DNA of 64,000 nt from an uncultured bacterium (lineage in GTDB: Bacteria; Babelota; Babeliae; Babelales; Vermiphilaceae): assembly GCA_963701085.1 (NCBI GenBank), contig OY969561.1, positions 608,001 through 672,000 of the forward strand, written 5' to 3'. The notes under the pieces were generated by a model. That model was not told the DNA's origin and searched no databases. It was given only the letters and a program-made list of their open reading frames with translations. A program made the position numbers and the translations under genes. This document shows, piece after piece, positions 25-51,973 of this stretch; the first letter of the stretch is position 1, and every line of letters starts with the position of its first letter.

Positions 25-57
25 GGCCTGCCATACGAAGCTTTACGCGAAGTATGG
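25..57 (-). repeat. Palindromic repeat family B fused to the tRNA-Ser CCA end
   Basis: Minus strand reads CCATAC-TTCGC-GTAAA-GCTTC-GTATGG-CAGGCC. The same architecture follows tRNA-Thr and tRNA-Leu. Confidence 0.8.
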
Positions 58-146
58 TGGAGAGAGAGGGATTCGAACCCTCGATGCCTCTTTCGAAACA
101 TACATGATTTCCAATCATGCTCCTTCAACCGCTCAGACACCTCTCC
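55..146 (-). tRNA. tRNA-Ser(GGA)
   Basis: GGAGAGG acceptor stem, CATGA-TT-GGA-AA-TCATG anticodon arm, long variable arm, GGTTCGAATCC T-loop, encoded CCA. Confidence 0.95.
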
Positions 147-159
147 TCAATGAGGAAAT

Positions 160-972
160 TTATTCCTGTGCATCAAGTTGTTGCAATGCTATTTCAACAT
201 CACTTGGAGCTTCTTCAACCACAACGCTTTGGACGCCTTTTTTAGTTACTTGAGCATCGCCTGCAGCTTTTACATTCTTAGCAGCTTCTTTACCACGAGT
301 AACAGCATCAGCAAGATATCCCAAAAGCAAGCTAATTGATTGAGGAGAATCATCATTTGCTGGAATAACAAAATCAACCAATGAAGGATCGGAATTAGTA
401 TCAACAATTCCAATTACCGGAATACCCATCAACACAGCTTCTTTAACCGCTGATTGCTCTTTGCTAACGTCAACAATAACAATTGCGCCAACTGGCAATG
501 CTAACTTTCTAATACCACCAACCGTTTTTTCAAGCTTGTCAGCAGTTTTTCTGTATAAGTTAAGCTCTTTTTTGGTATAAAAAGGATTTGATTCCGATTT
601 TACCAAAATATCTTCGTAATGAAGCAATCTTGTTAAAGATTTTTTAACTTGACTGAAATTAAGCAAAGTTCCGCCCAACCATCTGTGATTAACGTAAGGC
701 TGATTTAACTTAACCCCAATATCTTGAACAGTTTTTGATGCAGCTTTTTTAGTGCCTACCCACAAAACTGTTTTACCTTCAGCAGCTATCGACTCTAAGA
801 ATTTTTCTGATTTGTCCAACTGGAAAGCAGTTTTGGAAACATCAATCAAATGAACCTTATTTTTGTAGCCCCAAATATATTGCTCCATTTTAGGACACCA
901 ACGAGACTTTTGATGACCAAAATGAACGCCTGCTTTTACCAATTCTCCAAACAATTCTTTAAAATCTCTCAT
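160..972 (-). CDS. rpsB: 30S ribosomal protein S2
   Basis: AGVHFGH, VGTKK, RWLGGTL, GIVDTNSDP and IPANDD motifs. Confidence 0.98.
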   Translation of the reverse strand: MRDFKELFGELVKAGVHFGHQKSRWCPKMEQYIWGYKNKVHLIDVSKTAFQLDKSEKFLESIAAEGKTVLWVGTKKAASKTVQDIGVKLNQPYVNHRWLGGTLLNFSQVKKSLTRLLHYEDILVKSESNPFYTKKELNLYRKTADKLEKTVGGIRKLALPVGAIVIVDVSKEQSAVKEAVLMGIPVIGIVDTNSDPSLVDFVIPANDDSPQSISLLLGYLADAVTRGKEAAKNVKAAGDAQVTKKGVQSVVVEEAPSDVEIALQQLDAQE

Positions 973-1037
973 CCAAACATCCTTTATACTTTTATTTCAT
1001 TCATAGAAAGTGTAACAAAATAAGAGAAAAATGCAAT

Positions 1038-2468
1038 TTATACTGCATTCTTTCTATTAAAATCCCCTTCAGCCCCAATAACCTCATTATTAACAATCGC
1101 CTTCTCAAAGCGGCGACCTAACAAAAAGGCCACCCCAAACCACAAGCCGACTATCCCTGCGAAAAAGAAAGAATGAACCGGAAGCATGAATGATTCACCC
1201 ATTCTTGATGCAAAAATATTAAACATAGACCCTGCAGTTTTAGCAAACTTGCTCCCAAATGCATCAATCCATGATTTTGATTTAAACTTAATTTCTTTAA
1301 CCGTTGGTAAGTACAAGCTTTCTCGTACGGGAGAAAGGAATGCATAATTGAGTGCGGTAAACACAACAAAGGCATTTCGCAATGATTCTGGAGATGTTTC
1401 AAATACAAGGTAAAAGAGAATACCCCCCATAGAAAAAGGGATCAACATCAAACAAATACGGGTTCCAAGACGAGCTAACAACGCCTGCGTACCAACTAAT
1501 GAGATAATAAAGCCAACAAAATGCGCTTTAAATGCTATTTCAAACAATACCTTAGAAACATCAGAAATTGACCCTGCCCCAGCTTCTGCAACACCAAGAC
1601 GTAAATAGCCAAGCACCGTTGAAATTATTTCGTAAAAGAAGACCATACCAAAAATACCAAGCACATACGGATATTTTACAAACATTTCAAGCCCTGCAAA
1701 CATGCTTGGCTTAGCTACAACAGCAGTTTCACTTTTTTGCTTTTCAAGCTGATATGCCGCTTCATATCCATGTAATAAATGGCCAGGAACTGTTTTAATA
1801 AATAGTACTGCAACAACCGGAACTACTGCCAGAAAAAGCGAAGAAATTACTAAAATCAATTGGTGTGCCTCAACATGAGTTAAACATGGTTTGAGCAATT
1901 GAGCACTGAGTCCAAAAATATACCATGCCAAAGCCGCTGCAACCATGCCTCCAATTTTTGATCCTGCCACCATGTAGCCATAATTTCTTTTTGCTTCAGC
2001 AGGACTATTGACTGAATTGGCTAGTGCCCAAAAAACACTCACCACAAATGGTGAATAGCCTTCAACAAAGAAATAAAAAAACCAACCAAACAAACGGGAT
2101 GGATGCGCATCAGTATTGAGGATACCAATTGTTGGATGCCCTATATAATAGGCAAAAATAAGATTCGCCAACCCAAACACAACACTATAAAAAATGAGGA
2201 GCTGATAGCGACGAATTTTATCAACCAACCGCGAATAGAAAAAAATAGCGGGAACAAGCATGAGCATGGAAATAACTTTTACCCAAGGTATATATTCTTT
2301 TCCAACCGTTCCCAAAAAAATTGCGCTTTTAAGATCACGAGTTACGGTATATGCTCCAACAACAAGGAAATAGAGAAGCGACAAAAAGAAAAGTTTCATC
2401 CGCTCTTGTGGCTCAATCTCAAACAACCCACACACCATTTGTTTAACTCTAGATAACATTCTAACCAA
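1038..2468 (-). CDS. NTT/TLC family nucleotide transporter (ATP/ADP translocase-like)
   Basis: Multi-TM MFS-like protein with FWALAN..EAKRNY and LYLPT..IKFKSKSWIDAFGSKFAK, typical of the Npt/Tlc family. Confidence 0.88.
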   Translation of the reverse strand: MVRMLSRVKQMVCGLFEIEPQERMKLFFLSLLYFLVVGAYTVTRDLKSAIFLGTVGKEYIPWVKVISMLMLVPAIFFYSRLVDKIRRYQLLIFYSVVFGLANLIFAYYIGHPTIGILNTDAHPSRLFGWFFYFFVEGYSPFVVSVFWALANSVNSPAEAKRNYGYMVAGSKIGGMVAAALAWYIFGLSAQLLKPCLTHVEAHQLILVISSLFLAVVPVVAVLFIKTVPGHLLHGYEAAYQLEKQKSETAVVAKPSMFAGLEMFVKYPYVLGIFGMVFFYEIISTVLGYLRLGVAEAGAGSISDVSKVLFEIAFKAHFVGFIISLVGTQALLARLGTRICLMLIPFSMGGILFYLVFETSPESLRNAFVVFTALNYAFLSPVRESLYLPTVKEIKFKSKSWIDAFGSKFAKTAGSMFNIFASRMGESFMLPVHSFFFAGIVGLWFGVAFLLGRRFEKAIVNNEVIGAEGDFNRKNAV

Positions 2469-2500
2469 GACCTTTCTGCTGAATCTTACGGTGTTTTGCC

Positions 2501-2540
2501 AAAAAACGCCTTCTAAAAAATCAATTAGAAGGCGTTTTTT
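2501..2540. terminator. Intrinsic terminator between the two NTT genes
   Basis: AAAAAACGCCTTCTA...TAGAAGGCGTTTTTT inverted repeat with T-tails on both strands. Confidence 0.8.
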
Positions 2541-2568
2541 AATTACTTACTCAATAGTCAATAACATA

Positions 2569-50775: not shown

Positions 50776-50793
50776 GCCTACCGCCCTTCTTTT

Positions 50794-51198
50794 TTAGCCA
50801 ACTTTAAGTCCAATTAAAAAACCAACCACAAGGCTTGCACTGCCTGCAACATTAGCCTTCATCCATTCAAACAACATCATGCCGTATTTACTATCCCCTG
50901 CTACAGCCGCATCTTGCAGCCCAAGCATATTATGCACCTTTGGCATATTAATGGAAACGGACATATAATCAAATTGTTGTAGTACAACGATACCAACGAT
51001 AAAAAGGGCCATTGCGATAAAATATTCACTATATTTTTTCAGCAAAAACCCTGTAATAAAGCCTATCGCCCCATAAAGACCAATGTCAACCAGCATGTTT
51101 TTATCCATACCAAGCTTATTGGCAATCACTTCTGGCTGCATTGCATTCTTCAACGATTCAATAACACCCGCGTTTGTAACTTGTCCTTCATTAACCAT
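50794..51198 (-). CDS. FUN14-domain membrane protein
   Basis: G.IGFITGFLLKK..LQQFDYMSVSIN..VGFLIGL pattern. Confidence 0.72.
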   Translation of the reverse strand: MVNEGQVTNAGVIESLKNAMQPEVIANKLGMDKNMLVDIGLYGAIGFITGFLLKKYSEYFIAMALFIVGIVVLQQFDYMSVSINMPKVHNMLGLQDAAVAGDSKYGMMLFEWMKANVAGSASLVVGFLIGLKVG

Positions 51199-51289
51199 GA
51201 AAACCTCCCTTTTTTTACTTTTTCCTCTACTTCTGGTTTAAGTATATCGAAATAATAACGGCAGAATCAAGAAAAAAAGGTTAAATAAC

Positions 51290-51320
51290 AAAAAAGAAGC
51301 GTCCGGAGACGCTTCTTCTT
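51290..51320 (-). terminator. Intrinsic terminator of the HU gene
   Basis: AAGAAGCGTC-CGGA-GACGCTTCTT with A-run on the + strand. Confidence 0.85.
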
Positions 51321-51344
51321 AGAATTCTACCTGTAAACTTAAGC

Positions 51345-51617
51345 TTATTTGATCATAGCTTTAAGTGCTTTACCTGGTTTGAACTTTGGAACCTTCTTCG
51401 CAGCAATGGTCATTTTTGCGCGCGTTACTGGGTTAATCCCAATACGGCTTTTTCTTTTCATTACTGAGAAAGTGCCAAAACCTGTGAGAACTACTGATTT
51501 GCCTTGCTTTAACGCACCGCTCACCGTAGAAAGAAAAGCCTCAAGCATTTCTTTACAAACTGCTTTTGACTGTTTAGTTGTTTTAGCCATTGATTCGATT
51601 AACTTTGCCTTGTTCAT
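51345..51617 (-). CDS. hup: HU family DNA-binding protein
   Basis: MNKAKL..GFGTFSV..RIGINP..VPKFKPGKALK. Confidence 0.96.
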   Translation of the reverse strand: MNKAKLIESMAKTTKQSKAVCKEMLEAFLSTVSGALKQGKSVVLTGFGTFSVMKRKSRIGINPVTRAKMTIAAKKVPKFKPGKALKAMIK

Positions 51618-51788
51618 AATAAACATCCTTTACTTATTGACCTACGGCAAAGCAAACAAAAATAAAAACGATTACCTAATCTGTATGCTAGCCATAGGAA
51701 TATATGTTGTCAAGTATTTTCTGCTGATCTTTTTCTACTTCATTTTTTTATTACAGGTCATGAATAGTAGCTTGTTAGTAAATGTACT

Positions 51789-51973
51789 GCCCTACTGCGC
51801 TAAAACTTCGAAGGGCATTCTTCGCTCTTTTGCTAACAATTTTTATTTTTTGGCAACCCCATCCTTTAAAAAGATGGCTCTACTTCGCTTTAACAAGCTA
51901 CGAAGAGCAAGCCTGCCAGACGACTGTGTCCTCCGAAGCTTTATGCGAAGGAGGAAGCCTTGGCGTAGTCTGG
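51789..51973. repeat. Cluster of family B repeats, including a B-in-B nest fused to the tRNA-Leu CCA
   Basis: Copies at about 51791, 51879 and 51911-51973 (CCAGAC..GTCTGG-CAGGC with an internal copy). Confidence 0.8.

Follow-up and report, generated by a model that had tools for sequence, protein, structure and literature searches.

A palindromic repeat in fixed register on the encoded CCA ends of tRNA and tmRNA genes in Dependentiae

Why should a repeat hairpin begin exactly at the encoded CCA of a transfer RNA (tRNA) gene, in such a way that the CCA itself forms the first pairs of the stem? The question is raised by a window of 64,000 nucleotides (nt), the whole stretch of DNA that was analyzed, in which three tRNA genes, for Ser, Thr and Leu, are each followed by a hairpin of this kind. 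The window corresponds to positions 608,001-672,000 of G000, a genome in a single contig of 1,198,634 bp and 37% G+C, whose host is treated here as a member of the Dependentiae (TM6, Babeliales), a phylum of protist-associated bacteria, on account of a Lon protease that shares 84-92% identity with proteins of metagenome-assembled genomes assigned to Candidatus Dependentiae, candidate division TM6 or Babeliales; other G numbers used below designate relatives. The hairpin belongs to a repeat family, referred to as family B, and on tRNA genes its unit has the form CCA-NNN-TWCGC-(apical stem-loop)-GCTWC-N'N'N'-TGG, usually followed by a second CCA (CCA2) 4-5 nt on. From the comparison of genomes, the unit is shown to occur only on RNAs that end in CCA, namely tRNAs and transfer-messenger RNA (tmRNA), in a fixed register and in most of the phylum. 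The reading favored here, to which an even chance is given, is that a palindromic repeat resembling REP (repetitive extragenic palindrome) elements sits on the encoded CCA of tRNA-like genes, where it would be co-transcribed as a 3' trailer and act as a passive cap.

Throughout, tRNA genes were called with ARAGORN and Rfam, and folds were predicted with RNAfold. The phylum sample comprised 201 Dependentiae genomes from 20 families, and the congeners were 11 genomes of the same genus as G000.

The unit on three tRNA genes of the window

The gene for tRNA-Ser(GGA) occupies 55..146 on the minus strand (ARAGORN; 53 bits for the Rfam tRNA model), with its encoded CCA at 57-55, and the hairpin, termed H1, extends over 31..57 of the same strand (pattern match at G000 608031-608057). 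Read on the tRNA strand, the trailer is CCA(57-55)-TAC-TTCGC-GTAAA-GCTTC-GTA-TGG(33-31)-CAGG-CCA(26-24), so composed that the 6-bp lower stem of H1 starts from the tRNA CCA and is followed by an internal loop (TTC/TTC, 3x3) and then by an upper stem of 2 bp, GC. The TGG that closes H1 can alternatively pair with CCA2 in a mini-helix, termed H2, of sequence TGG-CAGG-CCA (24..33, minus strand). The same arrangement is seen at tRNA-Thr(CGU) (25798..25872, minus strand; ARAGORN and Rfam; CCA at 25800-25798), where sequence, pattern match and fold place H1 at 25769..25800 (minus strand) with an extended apical stem, GCTCC-TTGC-GGAGC; the trailer reads CCA(25800-25798)-TAC-TTCGC-TCCTTGCGGA-GCTTC-GTA-TGG(25771-25769)-CGGG-CCA(25764-25762), and its H2, TGG-CGGG-CCA, lies at 25762..25771 of the minus strand.

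The third gene, tRNA-Leu(UAA) (51971..52058, minus strand; ARAGORN and Rfam; CCA at 51973-51971), carries an H1 that spans 51916..51973 of the minus strand, as judged from sequence and from the minimum free energy (MFE) fold, and is interrupted by a nested copy of the repeat. Its trailer is CCA(51973-51971)-GAC-TACGC-CAAG-GCT(nested copy, 51955-51924)TC-GTC-TGG(51918-51916)-CAGGC. The nested copy is a generic family-B unit, TCCTCC-TTCGC-ATAAA-GCTTC-GGAGGA with the tail CACAG (51924..51955, minus strand; G000 659929-659955), and sits in the 3' half of the outer core; the orthologous site is uninterrupted in G010 and shows the same nesting in G009.

In the predicted folds of all three, the cloverleaf is retained and the CCA is paired with TGG, and keeping the CCA single-stranded costs 1.5 to 6.5 kcal/mol (MFE with the CCA paired versus forced single-stranded: -9.7 versus -3.2 kcal/mol for Ser, -15.5 versus -10.5 for Thr, and -24.2 versus -22.7 for Leu). 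A first-pass annotation of this DNA had placed the start of the hairpin at the CCA of these three tRNAs, had pointed to a T-A versus G-C change in the pair adjoining the CCA, and had seen no obvious classical U-tailed terminator directly after them. All of this holds: the sequences are as written there, the CCA lies in a predicted stem, the change of pair is present as stated, and terminator-like sites on the tRNA strand after the Ser, Thr and Leu genes number zero. One point needs amending. The annotation described one stem; H1 does exist, but TGG also pairs with the second CCA downstream, and the arm at tRNA-Ser has a distal complement, described below. It also gave the neighboring tRNA-Cys a ‘family C’ hairpin, and a hairpin is indeed found there, but in degenerate form only, the intact form following the orthologue in two congeners.

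Occurrence in the genome and across the phylum

The 3' flanks of all 35 tRNAs of G000 were inspected by eye, and the resulting strict counts are preferred here over scripted ones. The unit is present at the gene's own CCA in 22 of the 35 tRNAs and in tmRNA. It lies in exact register in 20 tRNAs, six of which have another repeat nested apically, while Leu(GAG) and Leu(UAG) have a unit with a 1-nt bulge; one of the 20, tRNA-Asp, has a variant whose stem is perfect and takes in CGCCA, with T7 coming after it. The 13 tRNAs that lack the unit include Ile and Ala of the ribosomal RNA (rRNA) operon, Gly(UCC), Asn and Cys, each of which has another tRNA close downstream, and Thr(GGU), Trp, three Met, Pro and Gly(GCC). 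In Val(UAC) there is no unit in register, a hairpin beginning instead at a second CCA 9 nt downstream. A loose scripted test flags 24 tRNAs and tmRNA (25/36 ends), of which two were rejected by eye, Cys and Val(UAC) being flagged wrongly, and it also passes 550 of 33,753 other CCA sites (1.6%). In the tmRNA gene, a standard one-piece form at G000 885,563-885,932 (145 bits in Rfam), the unit starts at the tmRNA CCA; a ‘permuted tmRNA’ proposed by ARAGORN (670 nt, 884,986-885,655, with an implausible tag) was dropped in favor of the one-piece gene found with Rfam, which it overlaps. The hairpin was also looked for at the RNase P RNA, signal recognition particle (SRP) RNA and 5S rRNA of G000, and none was found; the 5S rRNA ends in a canonical terminator.

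The core alone, TWCGC-N3-14-GCTWC, has 152 matches across G000, and all 12 copies with a simple core that are closed by CCA...TGG stand at the 3' ends of tRNA or tmRNA genes, 11 of them using the gene's own CCA. In ten of these 12 the CCA is repeated after the 4-5-nt tail. Tandem units that each begin at a CCA are found at Phe and Arg(CCU) of G000, as well as at L064 and L066, and the hairpin also occurs between the closely spaced tRNAs of a Ser-Arg-Ser cluster.

Every one of the 201 genomes encodes CCA (5,691 matches to T-loop-N11-CCA, approximately 25-35 per genome). The phylum-wide search pattern was T-loop...CCA-NNN-TWCGC, with a spacing of 3 nt between CCA and core, and its reversal served as control. 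This motif is found in 159 of the 201 genomes, with 1,231 matches against 2 for the control, while spacings of 4 to 9 give 95 matches combined, several of which are second words within a spacing-3 hairpin; five unrelated genomes gave 1 spurious match. Both the register and the unpaired TWC/TWC loop are kept in 18 of the 20 families. The full hairpin pattern is present in 24 of 41 relatives, with no control matches.

From 10 genomes of other families, 84 trailers were picked by their 5' half only. The N'N'N'-TGG partner is present in 68 of them, with at least eight types of complementary triplet, and CCA2 follows 2-8 nt past the TGG in 50 of these 68. Most of the 50 also have an additional C-G pair, and at the fourth pair of H2, 43 show C-G and 2 show T-A. 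An alignment of 57 trailers from 12 genomes, A1, was compared with 500 shuffles and with 3' partners that had been slid out of place: 91.8% of its paired cells are complementary, versus 78.9% in the shuffles, none of which (0/500) reaches the observed value, and 21-41% in the slid controls. The variable pairs of the lower stem covary (UA 24, GC 21 and AU 7 at one; AU 24 and CG 16 at another), and three apical pairs also change on both sides. The CCA:TGG pairs are invariant and draw their support from continuity with the covarying pairs. Compensatory changes of the kind expected of a structured RNA are present in these sequences, and the same pattern would be expected from selection on single-stranded DNA hairpins.

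These results bear directly on one of the two alternatives put forward in the first-pass annotation, in which CCA ends are what the element targets or is built upon. This proposal is strongly supported by the fixed register (1,231 matches at spacing 3 versus 95 at spacings 4-9), by the restriction to CCA-ended RNAs and by the CCA/TGG copies found there; the hairpin is shared by 22 of the 35 tRNAs and by tmRNA, well beyond the three genes on which it was noticed. The annotation had also suggested that CCA...TGG covariation be sought in tRNA flanks of this and related genomes: it is the adjoining triplet pairs that covary, CCA:TGG being invariant.

A further partner for the CCA-proximal strand lies downstream. 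For the 5' arm NNNTWCGC (8 nt), a perfect reverse complement was found 40-190 nt farther on in 27 of 99 trailers (reversed control 0), and a complement within one mismatch in 43 of 99 (reversed control 2). The bases of this distal complement change together with NNN and W, and past it there usually come TG and then an opposite-strand unit; it amounts to half a unit, short of a full inverted copy, and the extended arms CA-NNNTWCGC and GCGWAN'N'N'-TG are both present in a minority of trailers. In folds of 150-nt trailers, a 10-bp long-range helix (CA + arm / complement + TG) beats H1 for tRNA-Thr(UGU) and tmRNA, the distal arm is used in part by tRNA-Ser(GGA) and tRNA-His, and tRNA-Glu keeps the local H1. 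According to these models, as many as three pairings that exclude one another would be open to the CCA-proximal strand, in H1, in H2 and in the long-range helix. For tRNA-Ser of the window, the distal arm, a perfect complement, is found at G000 607,962-607,971, 83 nt downstream and just outside the window. The combination of arm, complement and opposite unit suggests a larger composite element of approximately 90-170 nt. A TTGATAGCAGAA-like string recurs before the distal complement, and the opposite-strand unit comes after it. Downstream of the Leu trailer there is a family-B hairpin in the opposite orientation (51878..51907, plus strand; G000 659878-659907), followed on the minus strand by an AU-rich hairpin, CCATCTTTTTAAAGGATGG, closed by CCA...TGG (51859..51877); hairpins of this CCATCTTTTTAAAGGATGG-like, CCA...TGG-closed type recur after many trailers, past CCA2. 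Just left of the window, the strand that carries tRNA-Ser(GGA) also has the SRP RNA gene (G000 607,766-607,858), approximately 200 nt downstream and with the trailer composite in between.

Generic copies, turnover and other repeats

Family B is not confined to its tRNA-linked form. Among the 73 units of G000 that keep at least five of six outer pairs, 12 are of the tRNA type (CCA/TGG) and 61 are generic. Outer stems of the generic copies are mostly TCC/GGA (26/61) or CCC/GGG (23/61), and their tails CAGG (21/61), CACG (16/61) or CAAG (5/61), which on the other strand read CCTG/CGTG. Two such copies lie away from tRNA ends on the minus strand of the window, one (TCCTCC...GGCGGA, tail CACG) at 25901..25926 (G000 633901-633926) and the other (TCCTAC...GTAGGA, tail CACT) at 54051..54076 (G000 662051-662076). 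Across the 73 units, 24 fall inside crude open reading frame (ORF) calls. Other copies, and an unrelated repeat as well, hold generic copies nested in their loops or stems, which shows that the generic unit (stem, core, stem, CASG tail) was inserted as a block. The short-loop core is enriched over its control in G000 (110 versus 18) and in G009 (139 versus 25), is at control level in the congener G001 (5 versus 6), and is near control in many other families; it follows that the form found widely is the tRNA-linked one and that the dispersed generic copies represent an expansion of local extent. In this genus, some 60 other places of the genome have been reached by a derivative whose outer stems are TCC/GGA or CCC/GGG.

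The tRNA-linked units are themselves far from permanent. The motif has no match in 42 of the 201 genomes, all of which encode CCA, and AT-rich trailers without a hairpin are found in the congener G001 (0 matches), in G101 (0) and in G082 (1); within the genus the count per genome ranges from 0 to 21. That a congener and other lineages do without it entirely speaks against its being indispensable. At tRNA-Leu(UAA) the triplet next to the CCA differs even among close relatives, being GAC in G000 and G010, GCC in G003, GCT in G009, TAC in G002 and GTC in G007; in G005 a decayed copy with the triplet TAC persists, in G004, G006 and G008 the site is taken by a C-type hairpin 9 nt past the CCA, and in G001 nothing is found. 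The tRNA-Thr(CGU) site is occupied in G000. In G010 and G001 it is empty, and both retain the promoter-like sequence (TTGACA-17-TATACT, 11/12 matches) that in the window lies downstream of the Thr trailer, at 25715..25743 of the minus strand; this promoter-like site is kept in congeners with or without the hairpin. Among 517 pairs of different tRNAs within one genome, 183 have the triplet and 57 the apical sequence in common; among 158 pairs of the same tRNA taken from different genomes, the numbers are 26 and 1, respectively. Such an excess of sharing within genomes over sharing between orthologues is the signature of copying or conversion inside genomes, and the units are shown, in the compared sequences, to act as a copied element that is homogenized, replaced and nested, unlike a stably inherited site.

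The C-type hairpin constitutes a second tRNA-linked type, in which the CCA is followed by a 9-nt spacer, NACTTTT(T)A, by CCCCAY...RTGGGG and then by (A/G)CCCC, with no pairing of the CCA. It is seen in the window at 52059-52125, in the trailer of tRNA-Cys(GCA) (gene at 52126-52199; gene and trailer together 52059..52199, minus strand; ARAGORN and sequence), where it is degenerate, and at L179, L183, L184, L186 and L187; intact C-type hairpins stand after tRNA-Cys or tRNA-Leu in G003, G004, G006, G008 and G009. Other repeats were noted as well. A TTGAAGGATATCCTCGAGCGCTCGAAGAAACCCTTCAA-like palindromic repeat has five copies in the window (7138-7182, 19323-19367, 30405-30449, 52924-52968 and 62536-62580), and a CCGCTCATCCTGAGCCTGTCGAAGGAC-like repeat is nested in several tRNA trailers. 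Window positions 34661-35536 hold a tandem array in coding sequence, with a period of 137-138 nt and at least six units that are 60-79% alike, probably a repeat-protein gene, and positions 10086-12509 hold three tandem paralogous units of approximately 815-827 bp, 84-95% alike, which correspond to three adjacent ORFs of 243-261 aa.

Maturation, mobility and the standing of rival explanations

The processing enzymes at hand set the frame in which a paired CCA has to be considered. G000 encodes an Rne/Rng-family ribonuclease of 483 aa that is closest to RNase G, RNase PH (above the equivalog cut-off), PNPase, and a type-A RNase P RNA. RNase Z has no match in G000. For the RNB domain, characteristic of RNase II/R, none of the 201 genomes gave a match above cut-off, and just 7 of the 201 have an RNase III domain, in each case in an ORF of 307-803 aa, unlike the typical short rnc, and in none of the 11 congeners. 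This RNA-processing toolkit (RNB 0/201, RNase III 7/201) is unusually thin for bacteria that retain rRNA operons. RNase III and RNase R were considered as removers of the hairpin and set aside, neither being found in G000. The same applies to a second metallo-beta-lactamase nuclease of the RNase J/Z type: the sole ORF with HxHxDH is a mechanosensitive-channel homologue, and a motif screen found no beta-lactamase-type RNase in G000, with RNases J, Y, T and D otherwise not searched. A gene of the CCA-adding nucleotidyltransferase type (L054 559-1989, minus strand; G000 approximately 596,990-598,420) scores well below the equivalog cut-offs, and its 5' part, where the catalytic head is expected, is broken by several in-frame stops, which may be a real disruption or the result of indel errors in the assembly.

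As regards mobility, the Y1/RAYT transposase domain (PF01797) has no match in G000 and is present in 4 of the 11 congeners, where the two loci inspected are flanked by unrelated hairpins without a family-B core. Y1/RAYT was accordingly rejected as the mobilizer in G000, the gene being absent and the congener copies carrying end hairpins of their own, and so was copying by reverse transcriptase, which is found neither in G000 nor in 10 of the 11 congeners. The load of IS200-type Y1 transposases varies greatly within the genus, with 14 matches in G010 versus none in G000.

The mechanism favored here is built from these elements. The unit would be transcribed together with the tRNA as its 3' trailer, which would fold onto the CCA and stack beside the acceptor stem, by way of either H1 or the 10-bp long-range helix. 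It would serve as a passive structural cap or insulator, a barrier to the 3' exonucleases PNPase and RNase PH; in combination with a following U-run, it may sometimes terminate transcription. Its removal would need an endonuclease, for which the RNase G-like enzyme and RNase P are candidates. New copies could arise by short-patch gene conversion or by template switching between hairpins, carried out by the host, a host process being proposed because no dedicated enzyme was found. The unit would be tolerated or mildly useful, and inessential. Turnover at orthologous sites, homogenization and nesting, as read from the sequences, favor an element that is built on, or copied onto, CCA ends, and this part of the reading gains from them.

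A number of observations weigh against the passive, copied repeat. G000 has neither Y1/RAYT nor reverse transcriptase. The generic copies repeat their first 3 nt in 4 of 61 cases, with no consistent target duplication, display no bias of orientation relative to replication (27 versus 34) and only a weak one relative to genes (23 versus 14). The phylum-wide register, the TWC/TWC mismatch and the covarying stems look like selection on structure, for which an element that is just tolerated would have no need; G-U and A-C mismatches are few and without strand asymmetry, so that pairing as RNA and as DNA are not separable by this measure. Contigs from RNA libraries (four runs) cover tRNA bodies only, and transcription of the trailers is assumed. 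A hairpin that pairs with the CCA should hinder trimming by PNPase and RNase PH; type-A RNase P contacts the CCA, and a paired CCA should block that contact. Together, hindered trimming and the blocked contact mean that the idea of a passive cap needs a further endonuclease. In a separate observation, contigs of two RNA libraries from one study (X15 and X16) match the tRNA-Leu body and extend past 51971 into unlike sequence, which holds a TACGC...TCGTCTGG-like string, probably that of a relative. A weak hint is available that such trailers are present in RNA libraries.

Alternatively, the trailer could be a dedicated switch of precursor tRNA, in which the CCA is held double-stranded in H1 or in the long-range helix and is freed when TGG pairs with CCA2 in the mini-helix. 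Such a switch would gate maturation, an endonuclease freeing the 3' end before RNase P and aminoacylation make use of the CCA, and would also guard against over-trimming of the encoded CCA, in a phylum that has no RNase II/R and RNase III (as counted above), and in G000 without RNase Z. It agrees with the pairing of the CCA in predicted MFE folds of both short and 150-nt trailers, with three mutually exclusive pairings on the CCA-proximal strand, of which H1 and the distal arm covary, with the confinement to CCA-ended RNAs including tmRNA, with the register and unpaired TWC/TWC loop kept in 18 of 20 families, and with the unusual set of RNases; moreover, if the apparent disruption of the cca-like gene in G000 is real, protection of the encoded CCA would be important. 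Nonetheless, a switch of this kind is considered unlikely. The 42 genomes without the motif include a congener that has the same RNase set as far as tested, 13 of the 35 tRNAs of G000 do without the unit, orthologous sites vary between versions of it, a hairpin type that does not pair with the CCA, and nothing, a decayed copy persists in G005, and the homogenization of unconstrained parts indicates copying rather than site-by-site selection. Control of 3' maturation by the hairpin, as put forward in the first-pass annotation, may apply, given that the CCA is paired in the predicted folds and the stems covary. In essence, the two alternatives of that annotation are covered by the switch, by the homing element discussed next and by the reading favored here; the data favor the alternative in which the element is built on CCA ends.

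A further candidate is a purely selfish, site-specific mobile hairpin that homes to the DNA of tRNA-like 3' ends and has no role as RNA. Here TGG would guide the element to its CCA target, as in IS200/IS605-type elements, and the second CCA would be either the original one, displaced, or the product of a 3-nt duplication of the target. This proposal fits with the finding that 10 of the 12 simple copies of the tRNA type have the CCA again past a tail of 4-5 nt, and likewise with the tandem units that each begin at a CCA (Phe, Arg(CCU), L064 and L066), counts of 0 to 21 within one genus, filled and empty orthologous sites, and nested insertions; CGTC-tagged REPs, in the accessible passages of PMC3733652, likewise lack a dedicated transposase and have ‘CCA’ tails. 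It fares less well with the enzymes, there being no candidate in G000, while the Y1 transposases of congeners go with other end hairpins and their presence does not follow hairpin abundance. Furthermore, of the generic copies just 4 of 61 show the duplication, no clean unit makes the difference between filled and empty Thr sites, compensatory changes in the arms are unexpected for ends bound by a transposase, and retention across the phylum is long for a parasite without its enzyme. Homing of this sort is regarded as quite improbable. Still less probable, and very unlikely in our estimation, is that the unit is simply an unusual tRNA terminator made of H1 or H2 and a U-rich stretch past CCA2. 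The His, Lys(CUU), Arg(UCU), Thr(UGU) and Tyr trailers of G000 do read ...CTGG-CAGG-CCAG-TTTTTTT, and the tRNA-Asp variant, with its perfect stem, CGCCA and T7, is a true exception; however, a run of at least four T within 10 nt is present in just 17 of 67 trailers with H1 and CCA2, the strand of the three window tRNAs shows no terminator-like site, the hairpin also lies inside the Ser-Arg-Ser cluster of close tRNAs, the H2 stem has just 3-5 bp, and the genome has canonical terminators, as at its 5S rRNA.

Among known systems, the trailers of E. coli tRNAs are the natural point of reference: they are cut by RNase E in a single-stranded AU-rich stretch a few nt past a free CCA, and the ends are then trimmed by RNase PH, RNase T and PNPase. 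The present case is similar in that the CCA is encoded, that RNase PH, PNPase and an enzyme of the RNase E/G family occur, and that the tRNA is followed by a structured element; it departs from that model in that the CCA itself is in the stem, while RNase III and RNase R/II, which usually handle stable stems, were not found in G000. In Neurospora mitochondria, with their small, AT-rich genome, conserved GC-rich palindromes flank the tRNA genes, behave as dispersed repeats and have been proposed as processing signals. Those palindromes are mitochondrial and unrelated in sequence to the present hairpin, mitochondrial tRNA genes do not encode CCA, and to our knowledge neither fusion to an encoded CCA nor pairing with one has been described for them. 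In Rfam 15, only tRNA reached the gathering score in the window, and when the Ser and Cys-Leu trailers were scanned at permissive settings, nothing beyond tRNA-derived or chance matches turned up.

The closest likeness is to the REP, BIME and REPIN sequences of Proteobacteria, which are mobilized by RAYT. As with these, the present units are short (approximately 26-45 nt), imperfect palindromes with a conserved stem mismatch, numerous in the genome and mostly intergenic; they occur singly or nested, and possibly in inverted pairs, and their copy number varies among close relatives. REPs are thought to stabilize or terminate transcripts, according to passages of PMC3733652. The differences are that the GTAG/CGTC tag is missing here, the tail being CAGG/CACG, and that G000 has no RAYT, nor was any REP-flanked transposase gene found. 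Since the family fails the defining tests of tag and RAYT, it is not filed as REP. [quoted passage not shown] The passages of PMC3733652 that were available contain no described REP class anchored in fixed register on the CCA of tRNAs. The CGTC-tagged REPs, including RPE-4 and RPE-6 of Rickettsia, offer a further parallel in the same passages, as small palindromes of obligate intracellular bacteria without a dedicated transposase, with loops of 4-5 nt and unpaired tails that mostly fit ‘CCA’ (PMC3733652). The comparison, made through the motif descriptions in that text, gives their order as tag, 8-9-bp stem, loop, stem and CCA tail, whereas here the CCA is within the stem, paired with TGG, and is the tRNA's own.

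In the literature that was covered, which did not extend to supplements or to most subscription journals, no account was found of such an element in Dependentiae, nor of trailer hairpins anchored on CCA elsewhere. In all tRNAs the 3'-CCA is the working end, and a repeat fused to it in fixed register across a phylum appears to be undescribed. In practical terms, the motif marks tRNA 3' ends in Dependentiae, and is a source of assembly breaks and spurious ORFs in metagenome-assembled genomes. A bolder interpretation can be advanced tentatively, with doubt prevailing: that this is either an RNA device of the Dependentiae that holds the CCA double-stranded, or the first known element that homes to CCA under the guidance of TGG. 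In the former version, competing helices would persist until a specific endonuclease acts, setting the order of 3' and 5' maturation and protecting the CCA, and the device, if real, would bear on how tRNA ends mature without RNase III, RNase II/R and RNase Z. In the latter, a new target specificity would be added to those of miniature mobile DNA, with what may be a natural pairing of guide and target. Either version, if true, would provide a new principle by which a repeat family is tied to the universal CCA end of tRNA.

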